Positions 31,820 to 37,303 of a DNA stretch of 64,000 bases are shown here, in pieces. Origin of the DNA: Bacilli bacterium. Lineage in GTDB: Bacteria > Bacillota_I > Bacilli_A > RFN20 > CAG-826. The position numbers and the translations under genes are program-made. How positions within the stretch are numbered: position 1 is the first letter of the stretch; the number at the start of each line of letters is the position of its first letter. The notes under the pieces are model-generated. The model worked only from the letters and a program-made list of their open reading frames with translations. It did no database searches and had not been told where the DNA came from. The stretch covers positions 12,256 through 76,255 of the forward strand of contig JAFVUY010000050.1 in assembly GCA_017502465.1 (NCBI GenBank), in the 5' to 3' direction.

Positions 31820-33913
31820 GTGTATGTTATGGGAAAGTTAAATTTTGTTTTAACAAAACTTATATTTTGGCCAATCATCGCATTAACCGCTGTCTTATTA
31901 AGTAGTTTTGAATTTGCCCCAGGTGATTTTTACAAAGGTTATTCTGATCCTGGTTTTTATATTATGGCGGGCGTTATTTTCTTTTTAATTATTATTTATT
32001 TTGTGTTGGAACATAGATTAAATAAGTTTAAAGTCCATCCTGTCTATTTCCCAATTTGTTTAACTTTACTTGTTTTAATGATTACAGCAATCTGGATGCA
32101 AGGAAGCGAAACTTTCACCAATAGCGAAACAAATTATACAATCGTAGTTTCTATAACTGTTACTCAAAAAATAAAATTTAGTGTGGTTATTGCTTTGTTT
32201 TTGACAAATATCTACATGATTTTATTCAGTTTTGGACGCAAACAATTTAGGGTTAAGCAAATATTCTGGTTTGTTAGAATCTATATTGCATTTGTTGTAT
32301 TTGCAATTATTTATTCTATCTCTACTGAATTTACTACATTAAAAGGAATCTTTGTCTCAGAAGGAACAGATTTAGTAGGGTTGAGTTCATTCTTCCATAA
32401 CGAAAACCTCTTTGCGATGTTTATTCTATATGCAATATTTGGTTGCTTCATTTTAAATTTTTATCACACTAGACCTCATAATTATATTTTAATCGCGGGC
32501 CTATTTTTCTATATGACATTAACCACATGCGCGGCTACATTCTTTGTTGGATTATGCGCTGTTATTATTTATATCATCTTTGACTTAATTCGAAACTTTA
32601 AAAAACATTGGGTGTTAACTTTAATCTCTGCTGGTATTTCAACAGCCATTATTGTTGGCGCTATTATTTTCTTTTCAACAGCGTATTCTAATGAAATTTC
32701 TTGGGTTAAAAACTTATTCACATATATTCAAAAAGAAATCTTTTCTAAAGACTTTAATACATTCACTGGTAGAACACGTATTTGGAAAGATATTTTTGAT
32801 AATTTAATTAATACCAATCTTGTTAATTTATTAATAGGTAGAGGTTATGGAACATCTTCCATGTTTTTAAAGGGATTAGGGTTAATGCATAGCAGTGGCT
32901 CTTTTGAAAGAGCTATTATTTCCGCTCACAATGGCTTAATTAATATCTTACTTAATAGCGGATTAATTGGTTTAGGTTTATATGCAATTCTTATCCTTTT
33001 AGTGGTATTTACCTGTATCTATTTACTTTTTAAGAAAAAAGTTAATCTTTCTATAACATTTGGGTTAATTATTTGCGGAGTTTTAGCGCACTCATTATTG
33101 GAAAGCGTTGCTTTCTATTCTACATCTATGGTTAATATGCTAGTCACAATTATGTTTATGTGTCCATTATTTAACTGTGCGAGAGGGGTCTTTAAACCTA
33201 AACTTGTTAATCAAGTTAAAAATGGTGATTACGCATATAACAAGATGCAATATCGCAAGTTACGTAGATTCATTAGCGTTGTTATTATTTCTTTAATTAT
33301 TCCTTGCGTTACTTTATTAACATCTTTGATGACCTATCAACATAAAGAGATGTTGAATACAGTTTTAACTATCTTAGTCGTGTTAGCGATTTCTTTAATC
33401 TTTGTTCCTCAATTAATCACAATGTTTTATAAAGATTCTAGTAGAAAGAGATTTATCTTTAGAACTATCTTCTATCCAATATTAACCACTGTTTTAGTTA
33501 GCGTATTAAGTGGTCTATATGTCCGATTCCTCTATAACAAAATAAATATTAAACCATATTTAGCAACTTTAATTATTTTTGTATCTATATTGTTGGTGTT
33601 AACATTCATTTTCACTTTAGTGAAAAAAGATAGATTTGTTCACTATTTGAGCGATACATTCTTACATAGTTTGTGCTTGGTGAAGATTGCTCTTCCATTA
33701 ACTTTAGTTGTTGGTGTCTTAGGAAATGTTATTTATGATATGTTATTTGTGCCTACACCTCTGACTGTCTTGGAAATTAATACTATTCCATTTATTTTGT
33801 ATTTCGTATTATTTGCAACTATTCCATCTAAAGAAAAATATTATTATACAAATTACTTTAATGAATTATCGCTTTATAACTTTAAAAGAACTACTCTAAA
33901 ATATAAAATTTAA
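31820..33913 (+). CDS. O-antigen ligase/Wzy_C-like membrane protein with extra C-terminal TM region
   Basis: TGRTRIW...LLIGRGYG...SAHNGLINILLNSGLIG signature and many TM helices. Confidence 0.72.
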   Translation: MYVMGKLNFVLTKLIFWPIIALTAVLLSSFEFAPGDFYKGYSDPGFYIMAGVIFFLIIIYFVLEHRLNKFKVHPVYFPICLTLLVLMITAIWMQGSETFTNSETNYTIVVSITVTQKIKFSVVIALFLTNIYMILFSFGRKQFRVKQIFWFVRIYIAFVVFAIIYSISTEFTTLKGIFVSEGTDLVGLSSFFHNENLFAMFILYAIFGCFILNFYHTRPHNYILIAGLFFYMTLTTCAATFFVGLCAVIIYIIFDLIRNFKKHWVLTLISAGISTAIIVGAIIFFSTAYSNEISWVKNLFTYIQKEIFSKDFNTFTGRTRIWKDIFDNLINTNLVNLLIGRGYGTSSMFLKGLGLMHSSGSFERAIISAHNGLINILLNSGLIGLGLYAILILLVVFTCIYLLFKKKVNLSITFGLIICGVLAHSLLESVAFYSTSMVNMLVTIMFMCPLFNCARGVFKPKLVNQVKNGDYAYNKMQYRKLRRFISVVIISLIIPCVTLLTSLMTYQHKEMLNTVLTILVVLAISLIFVPQLITMFYKDSSRKRFIFRTIFYPILTTVLVSVLSGLYVRFLYNKINIKPYLATLIIFVSILLVLTFIFTLVKKDRFVHYLSDTFLHSLCLVKIALPLTLVVGVLGNVIYDMLFVPTPLTVLEINTIPFILYFVLFATIPSKEKYYYTNYFNELSLYNFKRTTLKYKI

Positions 33914-33939
33914 AAATTTTCGGTAATATTTGAAAAAAC

Positions 33940-33966
33940 GTCCCTATTTATATTAGGGGCTTTTTT
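33940..33966 (+). terminator. Intrinsic terminator
   Basis: GTCCCTA-N7-TAGGGGC followed by T6. Confidence 0.75.
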
Positions 33967-34033
33967 AATTCTAAGAAAAAGTAAGGTTCTATATTTTGGT
34001 AATAATAGAAAGCCCTGATGGAAGGAGGCAAAA

Positions 34034-34096
34034 ATGGAAAATCAAAAGGATTTTTCTTATCCTCTATGTGGTTAGCCAAAGACACGAAATACATAA
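34034..34096 (+). pseudogene. comFA 5' remnant A (internally deleted) ending in the junction motif
   Basis: RBS AAGGAGG then MENQKDFSYPLCG*PKTRNT*. This resembles the ComFA N-terminus (F.CPICG) joined directly to the CGSPKTR.T* tail of remnant B. Confidence 0.6.
34067..34096 (+). repeat. Junction (attL-like) motif, copy 1
   Basis: TGTGGTTAGCCAAAGACACGAAATACATAA, 24/30 identical to 35125-35154. Confidence 0.75.
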
Positions 34097-34111
34097 CAAA
34101 AGGAGGAGAAT

Positions 34112-34414
34112 ATGAATAAATATAGAAGACACTTTAGAATATATTTTAAAAATAATCACCCTGCATATATTGTTGATGAGGAGGGGAATACCTATGTATT
34201 TCATAGAGTTACCCATTCGAAAACTTCTGGTGGTAGAAAAAATTGGACAAAAAATAATAACCCTATAAAAGGGGATAACAGACCAATGAGAATTGTGAAG
34301 AAACAAGAAAAAGATTCAAAAGCTCGATTTAGCTACTTCGAAATTGAACTTAAAAATGGCGTTGATATATCCTACCCAGAAATAAAAGTTATAAAAGAAA
34401 AAAAGAAGAAATAA
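34112..34414 (+). CDS. Small basic hypothetical protein, possibly PemK/MazF-like fold
   Basis: Strong RBS AAAGGAGG. HPAYIV...YVFHRVTHS is reminiscent of the RP-hydrophobic...TS pattern of PemK/MazF RNases. The fold call is inference. Confidence 0.7.
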   Translation: MNKYRRHFRIYFKNNHPAYIVDEEGNTYVFHRVTHSKTSGGRKNWTKNNNPIKGDNRPMRIVKKQEKDSKARFSYFEIELKNGVDISYPEIKVIKEKKKK

Positions 34415-34435
34415 AAAACAAGGATAAACCTTGTT
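34413..34435 (-). terminator. Intrinsic terminator closing the minus-strand RNA
   Basis: Minus strand reads AACAAGG-TTTAT-CCTTGTT-TTTT and overlaps the stop codon of the convergent ORF. Confidence 0.7.
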
Positions 34436-34745
34436 AGTTGTTTTGGACTCCATTGACACATTATGTTTCCCTCTAGTGTTCTAGGCGGGTGTCATCACTG
34501 CTTTAGTTGAGTTTATTAAGCAGCTGGTGTTCTCGTGGTCATTAATCACAAGTTGCCTTGTTCGCCATGTCTGGTGCCGGTCCTTACGCATACAAGTCCT
34601 AACTCTGCAACCGGTAATATCGATTGATATCAGTGAGGCTATTACCATTGAATCTAAGATTCATAAATAAGCGATCTAAACATAGATTTATTTAACAATC
34701 CCGACTAGGTAATCAACGTCCCTATGATCGCTTGCCATACGGCTA
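34413..34745 (-). ncRNA. Candidate ~330-nt structured non-coding RNA of unrecognised class
   Basis: About 41% GC by hand count (34441-34740), a chain of inverted repeats, and a promoter and terminator on the minus strand. No ORF with an RBS. Confidence 0.6.
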
Positions 34746-34751
34746 TCTATT

Positions 34752-34780
34752 ATTAAAACAAAACAAAAGAATTAATGCAA
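34752..34780 (-). promoter_or_regulatory. Sigma-A-type promoter P1 for the long RNA
   Basis: Minus strand TTGCAT, 17 bp, TTTAAT with TGn extended -10. Confidence 0.6.
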
Positions 34781-34796
34781 TATAAAGTCTATTAAA

Positions 34797-34847
34797 AAGA
34801 AAAAATGATTCACCAGACCAACAATGGATCTCACCTGCGAATCACCG
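34797..34847 (-). ncRNA. Candidate ~50-nt hairpin sRNA
   Basis: GGUGAUUCGC...AGAUC-N7-GGUCU...GUGAAUCAUU followed by a U-tail. Several G-U pairs form only on the minus strand. Confidence 0.5.
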
Positions 34848-34852
34848 CATAT

Positions 34853-34881
34853 ATTAAAACAAAATAAAGGAGGCAATGCAA
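34853..34881 (-). promoter_or_regulatory. Promoter P2, a duplicate of P1
   Basis: 34852-34885 is 29/34 identical to 34751-34784, with TTGCAT, 17 bp, TGn-TTTAAT conserved. Confidence 0.6.
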
Positions 34882-34882
34882 T

Positions 34883-35154
34883 ATAGAAACTTATAAATGC
34901 CCAGTTTGTGGCAACACAGATATTCATTTAATTGGTATGTTGAACGGTAAACCTTATAGTCGTAGATGTATCTCTTTTAAAGGTGAAGAAGTAGAACGCA
35001 AACCATCGTATCCTAAAAAGCACCTATTCACTTGGAATATGAGTTATCACCAGAGCAGAAAGAATTATCTGACAAGTTAGTGGAAAACTATAAAAAAGGA
35101 ATAGATAGTTTGGTTTATGCAGTATGCGGGTCGCCAAAAACACGAATAACATAA
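34883..35154 (+). pseudogene. comFA 5' remnant B (start lost, frameshifted, truncated at Walker A)
   Basis: Translates as CPVCGNTD...PKK/PIHLEY...LVYAVCGS-PKTRIT*, about 68/79 aa identical to ComFA residues 8-86. ATA sits where ATG is expected, and one base is missing in the A-run at 35015-35019. Confidence 0.9.
35125..35154 (+). repeat. Junction (attL-like) motif, copy 2
   Basis: TGCGGGTCGCCAAAAACACGAATAACATAA. Similarity to comFA breaks right after GGnTC. Confidence 0.75.
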
Positions 35155-35172
35155 TAGAAAGGAATAACTTTT

Positions 35173-36165
35173 ATGGAAAAAGAATTAAACGAAATTATAA
35201 CAATCATCCAGTCACATAAGGATAAAGCATATCGAAAAATTAATGAAGAATTAGTATTGATGTATTTTGAAATTGGCAAATACTTATCCATGAAGATTAA
35301 AGCAGAAAAATGGGGTTCGAAAACCATTGAATCGATTTCAAAAAATGTTATGAAAGTGTATCCAAATTTAAAAGGTTTTAACAGAGCAGGATTATATAGG
35401 ATGGTACAGTTTTATGAAGAATATGGAGACAATATAATTGTCTCAACACTGTCGAGACAAATTAGTTGGAGCAATAATATTCTAATTTTATCAAGTACAA
35501 AATCAATTGAAGAAAAAGAATTTTATTTAAGACTTTGTATTAAACACAATTACTCATATAGAGAACTAAATAGACAAATATCTAGTGGGTATTATGAAAG
35601 ATATTTATTGTCAGGCACGGACGCTTTAGAAAGTTTGACACCTGCTGTAGACGAGGATGATATTCCAAAATCGAAAATCTTAGACAATTATTCATTGGAG
35701 TTTTTAGATTTACCAAAAACATATTCTGAAAAAGATTTAAGAAAGTCCATAGTCTCAAATTTAAAAGACTTCATTCTAGAAATCGGTAATGATTTTTCCT
35801 TTATCGGAGAAGAGTACAGAATCCAAGTTGGAGTGCATGATTTTTATATTGATTTATTGTTTTACAACAGAACATATTCTTGTCTGGTCGCGTTTGAATT
35901 GAAAATAGGCGAATTTAAACCAGAATACATTTCAAAGATGAGTTTTTATTTGGAGTCATTAAATAGACAAGAAAAGAAGAATAACGAAAATCAAAGCGTA
36001 GGTATTATTCTATGCACTTCAAAAGATAAAACAGTCGTTGAGTATTCAGTGGCACAGAACAATTCAAATATAGCAATAAGTACATACGAGACAAAATTAA
36101 TAAATAAGAAATTGCTAGAAAACAAAATTAAAGAAATAAGGGAGATTCTTAATGTCGACAAATAA
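35173..36165 (+). CDS. YhcG/DUF1016 family PD-(D/E)XK nuclease-domain protein
   Basis: N-terminal YFEIG...WG...ISWS and C-terminal FILEIG.DF.F...IDLLFYNR...FELK...F.PEY..KM.FY. Confidence 0.92.
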   Translation: MEKELNEIITIIQSHKDKAYRKINEELVLMYFEIGKYLSMKIKAEKWGSKTIESISKNVMKVYPNLKGFNRAGLYRMVQFYEEYGDNIIVSTLSRQISWSNNILILSSTKSIEEKEFYLRLCIKHNYSYRELNRQISSGYYERYLLSGTDALESLTPAVDEDDIPKSKILDNYSLEFLDLPKTYSEKDLRKSIVSNLKDFILEIGNDFSFIGEEYRIQVGVHDFYIDLLFYNRTYSCLVAFELKIGEFKPEYISKMSFYLESLNRQEKKNNENQSVGIILCTSKDKTVVEYSVAQNNSNIAISTYETKLINKKLLENKIKEIREILNVDK

Positions 36166-37303
36166 TTTTGTTTGCCCAATATGTGGAAACACTGACATAT
36201 ATTCAATCGGTTACTTAAATGGCAAGCCATATTGCCGTAGATGTATCTCTTTTCGTGGTGAAGAAGTGGAACATAAACCTTCTTGCCCAAAGAAAGCTCC
36301 AATTCACTTAGAGTATGGGCTATCCACAGAACAGAAAGAATTGTCAGAAAAATTAGTGGAAAACTATAAGAAAGGCATAGATAGTTTAGTTTATGCGGTG
36401 TGTGGTTCTGGAAAAACCGAAATAGTTTTATCTTTGATAAGTCTAGTGGTTTCGTGCGGCGGGAATGTTGGTTTTGTGATTCCTAGAAGGGATGTTGTTA
36501 TAGAAATTCAAGAAAGGTTACAATCTATCTTTAAGGAAAATTTAGTTATTGGTGTTTATGGTAGCCATAGCGAAGAAAAAGAAGGAGATATAATTTGTCT
36601 CACTAGCCATCAGCTATATAGATACAAAAACTATTTTGATTTATTAATTATCGATGAAATAGACGCTTTCCCATTTAAAGGGAACGATGTTCTTGAATCA
36701 ATGTTTAAAAGTTCATTGAGAGGTCATTTTATTAAAATGAGCGCGACTCCATCAAATGAGGATATTGATTATTTCAAAAAAGAAGGAAGAGATATTTTAA
36801 AATTATTTAAACGATATCATGGAGATTATCTCCCGGTTCCTATAGTCAAAAAAAGAAATAATTTTTTCGCATTTTTTGAATTATTTAGATTACTCAAAAA
36901 GTATAAAAAGCAAAACAAACCAGTTTTTATTTTTTGTCCAACAATAAAGCTTGCTGAAAAGATATATGACATTACGAAATTATTTTTTAGTAGTGTAAAA
37001 TGCGTTCATTCGAAAAAAGAGGATAGAGCACAAACAATTTCATCATTTAAAAAGGGAGAATTTAAATTTTTAATTACTACATCTGTCTTAGAACGAGGGG
37101 TTACCGTTAAAGATTTGCAAGTCATTGTTATGTATAGTGATCACCAGCTATATGACGAATATGTTTTAATTCAGATTGCTGGAAGGGTTGGAAGAAAAAT
37201 AGGTGCGACAAAAGGAGATGTGATATTTATTTGTGAAGAAGAAAACCAACAAATTACTAACTGCATTAATAAAATCAAAACCGCAAACGAATCATTGCGT
37301 TAA
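36152..37303 (+). CDS. comFA: ComFA competence SF2 helicase/ATPase
   Basis: Zn ribbon CxxC...CxxC, AVCGSGKTE, IPRRDV, DEIDAFP, SATP, TTSVLERGVT, QIAGRVGR. Confidence 0.93.
   Translation: MSTNNFVCPICGNTDIYSIGYLNGKPYCRRCISFRGEEVEHKPSCPKKAPIHLEYGLSTEQKELSEKLVENYKKGIDSLVYAVCGSGKTEIVLSLISLVVSCGGNVGFVIPRRDVVIEIQERLQSIFKENLVIGVYGSHSEEKEGDIICLTSHQLYRYKNYFDLLIIDEIDAFPFKGNDVLESMFKSSLRGHFIKMSATPSNEDIDYFKKEGRDILKLFKRYHGDYLPVPIVKKRNNFFAFFELFRLLKKYKKQNKPVFIFCPTIKLAEKIYDITKLFFSSVKCVHSKKEDRAQTISSFKKGEFKFLITTSVLERGVTVKDLQVIVMYSDHQLYDEYVLIQIAGRVGRKIGATKGDVIFICEEENQQITNCINKIKTANESLR

Follow-up and report, generated by a model that had tools for sequence, protein, structure and literature searches.

The closest catalogued relative of the RNA described here is cow-rumen-1 (RF02946), a 61-nucleotide (nt) motif that is filed in Rfam as a small RNA (sRNA) and reportedly goes back to a 2017 survey of 224 candidate RNAs. 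At a greater distance, and by analogy only, stand ROOL, GOLLD and OLE, likewise stand-alone, highly structured RNAs with pseudoknots and loop-loop contacts (10.1101/2024.12.08.627333); the first sighting of ROOL, too, was in cow rumen (PMC5737381). We examined a locus in a 64,000-nt stretch of DNA (the window) from a Bacilli bacterium (assembly GCA_017502465.1, contig JAFVUY010000050.1), where an earlier note, made from the letters alone, had proposed a structured, independently transcribed RNA. The locus, positions 34746..34413 on the minus strand, is free of open reading frames (ORFs) of any substance, relatively GC-rich and closed by an intrinsic terminator. In our judgement it is very probably an independent gene for a structured noncoding RNA (ncRNA) of ~330 nt, which corresponds to a single, complete module in a family of modular RNAs from uncultured rumen Bacilli.

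The cow-rumen-1 core and its modular family

RF02946 matched the window at 34617..34556 on the minus strand with 47.7 bits (E 9.7e-10), spanning positions 1-61 of the 61-position model. Close relatives of the window RNA, like the window RNA itself, score under the cut-off of this model (40.4-49.8 bits), and typical modules reach 65-86 bits. The window sequence carries a P1/P2 hairpin, a GAGUUAG-type loop and then a conserved single strand of the form CNCCNGACANG...AAGAGG; the corresponding parts read CCGG/CCGG, UGCA/UGCG, GAGUUAGGACUU and CACCAGACAUGG, with CAAGG replacing GAGG. A permissive scan of 33900-35200 gave six other Rfam matches, all with E of at least 1.7, and Rfam 15 at gathering scores yielded a single tRNA in the whole window, away from this locus. 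ROOL, GOLLD, OLE, raiA, HEARO, tmRNA, RNase P, SRP and 6S had no gathering-score match in the window; the earlier note had likewise seen no hallmark sequences of tmRNA, RNase P RNA or SRP RNA. The earlier note had also called the class unrecognised. This holds insofar as no Rfam family matched at gathering score, but because the cow-rumen-1 match is full-length, though under the cut-off, the class is only partly unrecognised.

The window RNA resembles cow-rumen-1 in the P1/P2 hairpin, the GAGUUAG..CUU loop, the 3´ CNCCNGACANG...AAGG tail, and the habitat and host group, namely rumen Bacilli. It differs in that the catalogued motif makes up less than one fifth of the RNA, that the 3´ end of the motif is a strand of a closing helix, and that the loop forms a pseudoknot instead of the extra P2 pairs drawn in Rfam. 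For the remaining ~270 nt, and for the modular family around the motif, no Rfam entry was found. No description of the large RNA was found in the searchable literature, and a term search of the main text of the 2017 survey (PMC5737381) returned no mention of cow-rumen-1, although its supplement may describe the motif or its tandem occurrence. The core of the RNA is the catalogued motif; the ~1-kb or ~330-nt RNA around this 61-nt piece is uncatalogued and, as far as we found, undescribed. The window RNA had no sequence or model match to ROOL, GOLLD or OLE and belongs to a family built from repeated homologous modules, a feature not known to have been described for these three classes.

Each module of the family is ~300-330 nt long and has the 61-nt motif at its core; normally three diverged modules stand in tandem, giving an RNA of ~1 kb. 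Among 151 genomes of the order, cow-rumen-1 reached its cut-off in two (G107 and G112), with three copies each at spacings of 302 and 330 nt, all within a ~1.1-kb stretch that lacks ORFs and has its own promoter-like site and terminator. A motif pattern applied to contigs of one genome per species returned 39 stretches, every one from metagenome-assembled genomes titled Bacilli, Erysipelotrichaceae or Bacillales and most from rumen or ruminant samples, with no match in viral contigs; a second pattern returned 22 metagenome stretches. Using a profile that included the window row and L073, we found 173 modules across 63 loci. Exactly three modules, 291-376 nt apart, were present at 44 of these loci, more than three at three loci (3+3, 5+3 and 2+3), two at six loci, and one at an apparently cut contig end at two. 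The other eight, seven of them distinct (L067 is the contig of L055), have a single module of the window type. The three positions of the array hold three distinct conserved module types in a fixed order, so the array is an old triplication and not a recent repeat.

Two further observations concern the arrays themselves. G180 (1.5 Mb; contigs C6, C13 and C20) has nine motif matches in arrays of 3+3+3, and G181 (1.3 Mb; contigs C11 and C53) has eleven in arrays of 3+5+3, many copies of a ~1-kb RNA gene for genomes this small. In G107 and G112, a ~130-nt ORF-free, relatively GC-rich stretch (L014:300-430 and L013:440-570) is kept between the two genomes just upstream of the three-module RNA; it ends in a T-run and had no Rfam match at E ≤0.01.

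When window-like rows were excluded and a profile was built from 75 typical modules, the window locus was the sole match in its 2.74-Mb genome (E 2.1e-6). In alignments with other modules, the resemblance of the window RNA extends far past the 61 nt of the motif. In 61 related genomes (G000 included), blastn matched only the two ends of the query, in short stretches of low complexity, and nowhere the body of the RNA; phage and plasmid collections gave no match. Compared with the three-module RNA, the window RNA has the same P_LR, Hc, P1, P2, pseudoknot, UCAACU hairpin and K2 (defined below), the same host group and the same status as an independent gene with its own terminator. It differs in having one module, a fixed place beside comFA and the standing of sole copy in its genomes, and a 5´ hairpin of its own replaces helix P_J. 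Since there is one module both here and genome-wide, we regard it as a one-module variant and not as a standard member of the family.

Fold of the RNA and covariation across the family

We mapped the pairings on the window sequence itself, separately from the counts made in family alignments.

34413..34746, minus strand: ncRNA gene with a transcript of ~330 nt; predicted start at 34746-34744, end at the U-tract 34418-34413
34752..34780, minus strand: putative promoter of the extended -10 type, read from the sequence; TTGCAT 34780..34775, a 17-nt spacer, TGT-TTTAAT 34760..34752
34734..34743, minus strand: 5´ hairpin GCC-GUAU-GGC; stem kept and loop changed in L070, L084, L062, L073 and L038
34669..34733, minus strand: 5´ domain closed by the long-range helix P_LR, AAGCGAUC (34733-26) with GAUCGCUU (34676-69)
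34724-21/34709-06, minus strand: helix Pa within the 5´ domain, from homology and window mapping only
34701-697/34688-84, minus strand: hairpin Pb within the 5´ domain, from homology and window mapping only
34649..34663, minus strand: hairpin Pc, UGAAUC-UUA-GAUUCA; basal U-A changed to C-G in L073 and L038 (by eye)
34555..34639, minus strand: closing helix Hc around the core, GCCU (34639-36) with AGGC (34558-55)
34632-26/34621-15, minus strand: hairpin Hm, in the form found in third modules
34556..34617, minus strand: cow-rumen-1 core with P1 (34614-11/34580-77) and P2 (34609-06/34590-87)
within 34556..34617, minus strand: unpaired parts of the core, the GAGUUAGGACUU loop and the conserved single strand CACCAGACAUGGCGAAC
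34532..34552, minus strand: UAAU hairpin with loop AUUAAUGAC; found at this position in every module, where the stem varies and the loop is of the UAAU/UAAC type
34498..34523, minus strand: UCAACU hairpin, CUGCUU (34523-18) with AAGCAG (34503-498)
34455..34493, minus strand: hairpin H6, GACAC/GUGUC with inner CUAG/CUAG, between the UCAACU hairpin and the 3´ pseudoknot strand
34445..34599, minus strand: pseudoknot PK, core loop GGACU (34599-95) with AGUCC of the 3´ tail (34449-45)
34506..34717, minus strand: probable loop-loop contact K2, GUUGA (34717-13) with UCAAC (34510-06)
34417..34435, called on both strands: bidirectional intrinsic terminator (hairpin and T-run), common to the RNA and the convergent small gene 34112-34414

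The module divides into a 5´ domain closed by P_LR and a 3´ domain in which the Hc-closed P1/P2 core is followed by three hairpins. The pseudoknot joins the core loop to the 3´ tail, and the GUUGA/UCAAC loop-loop pairing probably links the two domains. P_LR, Hc, Hm, P1, P2, the UCAACU hairpin, the pseudoknot and K2 are all present in the window RNA. Its Hc register is shifted by one base from the family form, NNCCUC/GAGGNN around the Rfam motif, and the H6 position is occupied in other modules by a variable hairpin, with one mismatch arising in L073.

Covariation supports this fold. In the 3´ half, counted over 80 non-redundant modules, 30 pairs and six helices, 89.5% of cells were paired, compared to 35.8-45.0% when partners were slid by 1-3 columns, and double-change cells numbered 270 versus 25-95. 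Of 500 shuffles, none matched the observed value on four of five measures, and two did on the fifth. P1 was paired in 100% of cells and P2 in 92.3%, both with double changes; Hm reached 89.8%, Hc 81% with double changes in three of six pairs, and the UCAACU hairpin 81% with double changes in all six. The three pairs by which Rfam extends P2, drawing part of the core loop into the hairpin, showed no double change. The pseudoknot, whose second strand lies ~150 nt downstream of the core loop, was paired in 97.1% of cells, with GC 42 times and AU 32 times at 117-348 and CG 59 times and UA 16 times at 118-347. P_LR, counted over 82 modules, was 96.5% paired, and all six pairs had changes on both sides.

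Other elements were less sharply resolved. Columns of P_J and Pb were 75% and 72% paired, blurred by one-column register shifts between module types, and Pa and the UAAU hairpin were left out of the column counts because their registers differ between types. For K2, 69 of 77 rows were used; the extraction rule removed the other eight and misread at least one row (L075). Position 2 was GC in 54 rows, AU in 12 and other in three. Pairing within the module was 0.889, compared to a shuffled mean of 0.855 (maximum 0.872) and 0.748 with the loop of the next module, and the compensatory changes seen go back to only about three independent events. From the MAFFT alignment of mixed module types, RNAalifold returned few pairs only, around P1/P2, and in an all-against-all scan of column pairing the module-type signal drowned any structure. 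Self-complementary loops, considered as a sign of dimerisation, showed no consistent pattern by eye.

Most of the inverted repeats listed in the earlier note can be recognised in this fold. Those at 34498-503/34518-23 and 34577-81/34610-14 are the UCAACU hairpin and P1, which covary in the wider family; 34454-59/34489-94 with its inner CTAG/CTAG is H6; and 34649-55/34657-63 is Pc, where close relatives have a compensatory change by eye. The hairpin at 34734-43 is present, and what had been put forward as an alternative helix, 34669-76/34726-33, is P_LR, which covaries in the family and is compensated in close relatives. The suggested long-range pairing of GGACUU with GAGUCC is the family pseudoknot, with the double changes described above. 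The repeat 34613-19/34640-46 (GGUAAUA/UAUUACC) can form a helix, but it competes with Hm and P1 and finds no support in the family.

Composition and signals at the ends fit an RNA gene. As had been noted from the sequence, the segment is GC-rich in an AT-rich context, with a GC fraction of 0.415 at 34400-34599 and 0.385 at 34500-34699 versus 0.21-0.33 to the left (33500-34400) and 0.26-0.355 to the right (34700-36200). Only ORFs of 30-55 amino acids occur inside the gene, and the longest (55 amino acids, 34481..34648, minus strand) is disrupted in relatives by 1-nt indels (-1 in L055, +1 in L073 and L038), which speaks against a decayed coding sequence. The minus-strand terminator proposed in the earlier note was called by our scan, which found two sites versus 0.3 expected in shuffles. 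The proposed promoter, TTGCAT-17-TGnTTTAAT, is present in the sequence, but a consensus scan did not call it, as TTGCAT matches TTGACA at three of six positions and TTTAAT lacks A at position 2. We place the start near 34746-34744 because the conserved body begins at UAGCC and the promoters differ between two single-module subtypes; in the other subtype (L073 and L038), TGATATAGT lies, by eye, at the equivalent distance from UAGCC. A helix of the U-rich promoter with GGCGAACAAGG, drawn by RNAalifold from seven close relatives, was taken as an artefact because it lies upstream of this start. The promoter region is also part of a 46-nt direct repeat with 78% identity (34751-34796 and 34852-34897), the second copy of which is just upstream of a comFA fragment; the repeat contains words like TTGCAAT/ATGCAAT.

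That the region folds by chance, or is a decayed coding sequence, would sit comfortably with the modest minimum free energy (MFE) z-scores (-1.98 for the minus strand and -1.43 for the plus strand) and with the short ORFs. Given covariation far above the slid and shuffled controls, the indels that break the longest ORF and an Rfam E-value of 1e-9, we consider this explanation practically negligible.

The stretch is also found in RNA libraries. It was present in 20 of 23 listed runs, from sheep or bovine gut, which represent 16 studies and 11 of which are recorded as RNA. Four RNA runs, each from a different study, contain whole contigs of 268-295 nt that fall within the RNA and differ from it in one letter at most (34447-34731, 34441-34735, 34455-34742 and 34451-34718). 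The flanking genes are essentially without cover in these four runs, which we did not count as evidence of absence, and such depth as there is at 34392-34431 stems from other contigs, through low-complexity pieces of 31-33 nt. We take the contigs as support for expression, not as proof.

Several points weigh against our interpretation. The window RNA does not reach the cow-rumen-1 gathering score of 53.4 bits, and the match to the 75-module profile spans 34651..34493 only, so that for its 5´ domain and 3´ tail the likeness is one of architecture and not of score. MAFFT places the window rows one column off in Hc, PK and the 5´ domain, and the family counts for Hc, PK and P_LR therefore exclude the window as paired. 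Pa, Pb, H6 and the window's own PK pairing are invariant because the single-module lineage varies little, and the case for them is made by analogy with the family. Many covarying cells stem from few events, since the module types are related. A folding z-score as unremarkable as that of the window RNA is weak evidence of structure, the consensus promoter scan called no promoter, and the Logan contigs give neither strand, ends nor level of a transcript, in libraries that may contain DNA. Even so, the ~330-nt structured minus-strand RNA put forward in the earlier note is supported, and the covariation among homologous loci for which that note had called is present.

Single-module loci and their neighbouring genes

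Across the seven distinct single-module loci, the body of the RNA is 83-99% identical while flanks and promoters diverge. The L055 copy is ~99% identical over the RNA (five differences), and identity stops right after the terminator. L073 and L038 have a different promoter, a conserved body and two compensatory P_LR pairs (C-G to U-A and U-A to C-G). The genome of the window has one copy and no array; G177, G178 and G179 likewise lack an array, and each contains a single sub-threshold match to the motif (G177 to G181 are genomes of 0.9-1.5 Mb). The RNA is thus the sole copy, with no three-module array, in all four single-module genomes examined.

In a quick tree, the single-module pair was sister to the third-module clade (Shimodaira-Hasegawa-like approximate likelihood ratio test support, SH-aLRT, 88) on a long branch of 0.51. 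Most simply, the window RNA may be a terminal module left after loss of its partners, or it may represent the ancestral state; the tree is unrooted and favours neither. The long branch beside third modules, the presence of one module only and an Rfam score of 47.7 versus the typical 65-86 bits would all suit a decaying, non-functional relic of a three-module gene that lost two modules. A relic would hardly be expected to keep its body at seven distinct loci amid diverging flanks and promoters, with compensated changes in P_LR and Pc, every module element intact, its sequence in the RNA libraries of four studies and no other family copy in any of the four genomes, and we find this explanation very unlikely.

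The convergent small gene at 34112-34414 encodes a basic protein of 100 amino acids, which matched no Pfam, NCBIfam or convincing PHROG family. Homologs lie beside the RNA in L084, L070, L073, L062 and L066, and L055 has a different small ORF there (24% identity over 57 residues, E 0.04). Members of this protein family are present in 13 of the order's 151 genomes (up to four matches in G159), whereas cow-rumen-1 reaches its cut-off in two. The earlier idea that the RNA travels with this gene is weak: the two are adjacent within a narrow syntenic single-module lineage, but none of the three-module loci has this gene, and G030 has the small gene and comFA fragments with no such RNA between them. 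In G030, the RNA's place is filled by a 70-nt element of hairpins and a T-run with the same AUAGCC start, which is 97% identical between L087:1180-1249 and L055:5540-5609; in L055 it stands just past the RNA terminator. It had no Rfam match and was not found in the genome of the window.

On the other side, the RNA of the single-module lineage always adjoins the 5´ end of a comFA-like gene and is transcribed divergently from it. In the window this neighbour is a decayed fragment (34898-35148), which duplicates, at 75-80% identity, the 5´ end of a gene for a ComFA-like helicase (36152-37303); the two are separated by a gene for a YhcG/DUF1016 nuclease (35173-36165). Fragment and DUF1016 gene occur in the same layout in L084, L070 and L066, G030 has two comFA fragments, and in L055 comFA is intact beside the RNA without a DUF1016 gene. 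The arrangement looks like repeated insertions that carried their own replacement of the comFA 5´ end.

This constant position, a terminator common to the RNA and the small gene, and the resemblance (78%) of the promoter region to the stretch upstream of the comFA fragment could point to a locus-specific regulator, either an antisense or divergent RNA acting on comFA or a 3´ element of the small gene. Such a role seems to us even less plausible than a relic, as homologous three-module RNAs occupy unrelated loci without a common neighbour, the RNA overlaps neither gene, G030 retains the small gene and comFA fragments without it, and antisense action needs no such complex pseudoknotted fold. The three-module loci share no neighbour, and the genes beside them, judged from N-terminal sequences without a Pfam scan, resemble housekeeping genes. 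From these comparisons of neighbours, we regard the RNA as an independent gene, neither leader nor cargo of the small gene.

The rearranged surroundings, with a duplicated comFA 5´ end and an inserted nuclease gene, and the several arrays in some genomes also bring to mind an RNA that belongs to a mobile element or serves in defence, for instance a guide RNA, a retron ncRNA or a piece of an intron. Rfam gave no match to classes of this kind, no reverse transcriptase, transposase or nuclease is consistently adjacent, phage, plasmid and viral collections gave no match, and L055 carries the RNA beside an intact comFA with no DUF1016 gene, leaving this explanation highly improbable.

Proposed action of the RNA

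We propose that transcription would start near 34746-34744 from the extended -10 promoter and would end at the bidirectional terminator, and that the RNA may act in trans as a compact, tertiary-folded particle, being neither a leader nor an antisense RNA. A trans-acting folded particle is suggested by the two tertiary pairings, the invariant unpaired bases of the junction, the gene's own promoter and terminator, the variable loci and the presence in RNA libraries. Each module would be an autonomous folding and working unit, as suggested by the lineage that has one module as its only copy.

Tentatively, by analogy, the RNA might be a protein-binding or self-associating scaffold of the OLE/ROOL/GOLLD kind, a possibility we hold at somewhat less than an even chance. 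The main alternative, a ribozyme or ligand-binding RNA, comes to mind because so many unpaired bases are invariant in the junction that Hc closes, and seems to us rather doubtful; our remaining expectation falls on some other function. An unlikely further idea is that the module is the functional unit and that lineages switch between a covalent trimer and a single module working alone or assembling non-covalently into a multi-module particle like that of the trimer, the latter by analogy with homo-oligomeric ROOL, GOLLD and OLE. If this were true, the window RNA would provide a naturally occurring minimal construct with which to study how the class is built and what it does.

Among the few known classes of large pseudoknotted bacterial RNAs with many invariant unpaired bases, unusual chemistry or unusual assemblies have come to light repeatedly. 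The family described here seems to be another class of this kind: it is restricted to uncultured Bacilli of the rumen with small genomes, it is present in rumen metatranscriptomes, and in some genomes it forms three arrays. Its single-module form implies that one module can stand alone, and at ~330 nt this form is tractable for probing, mass photometry and cryo-electron microscopy. Comparison of the one- and three-module forms could show why RNA domains triplicate.

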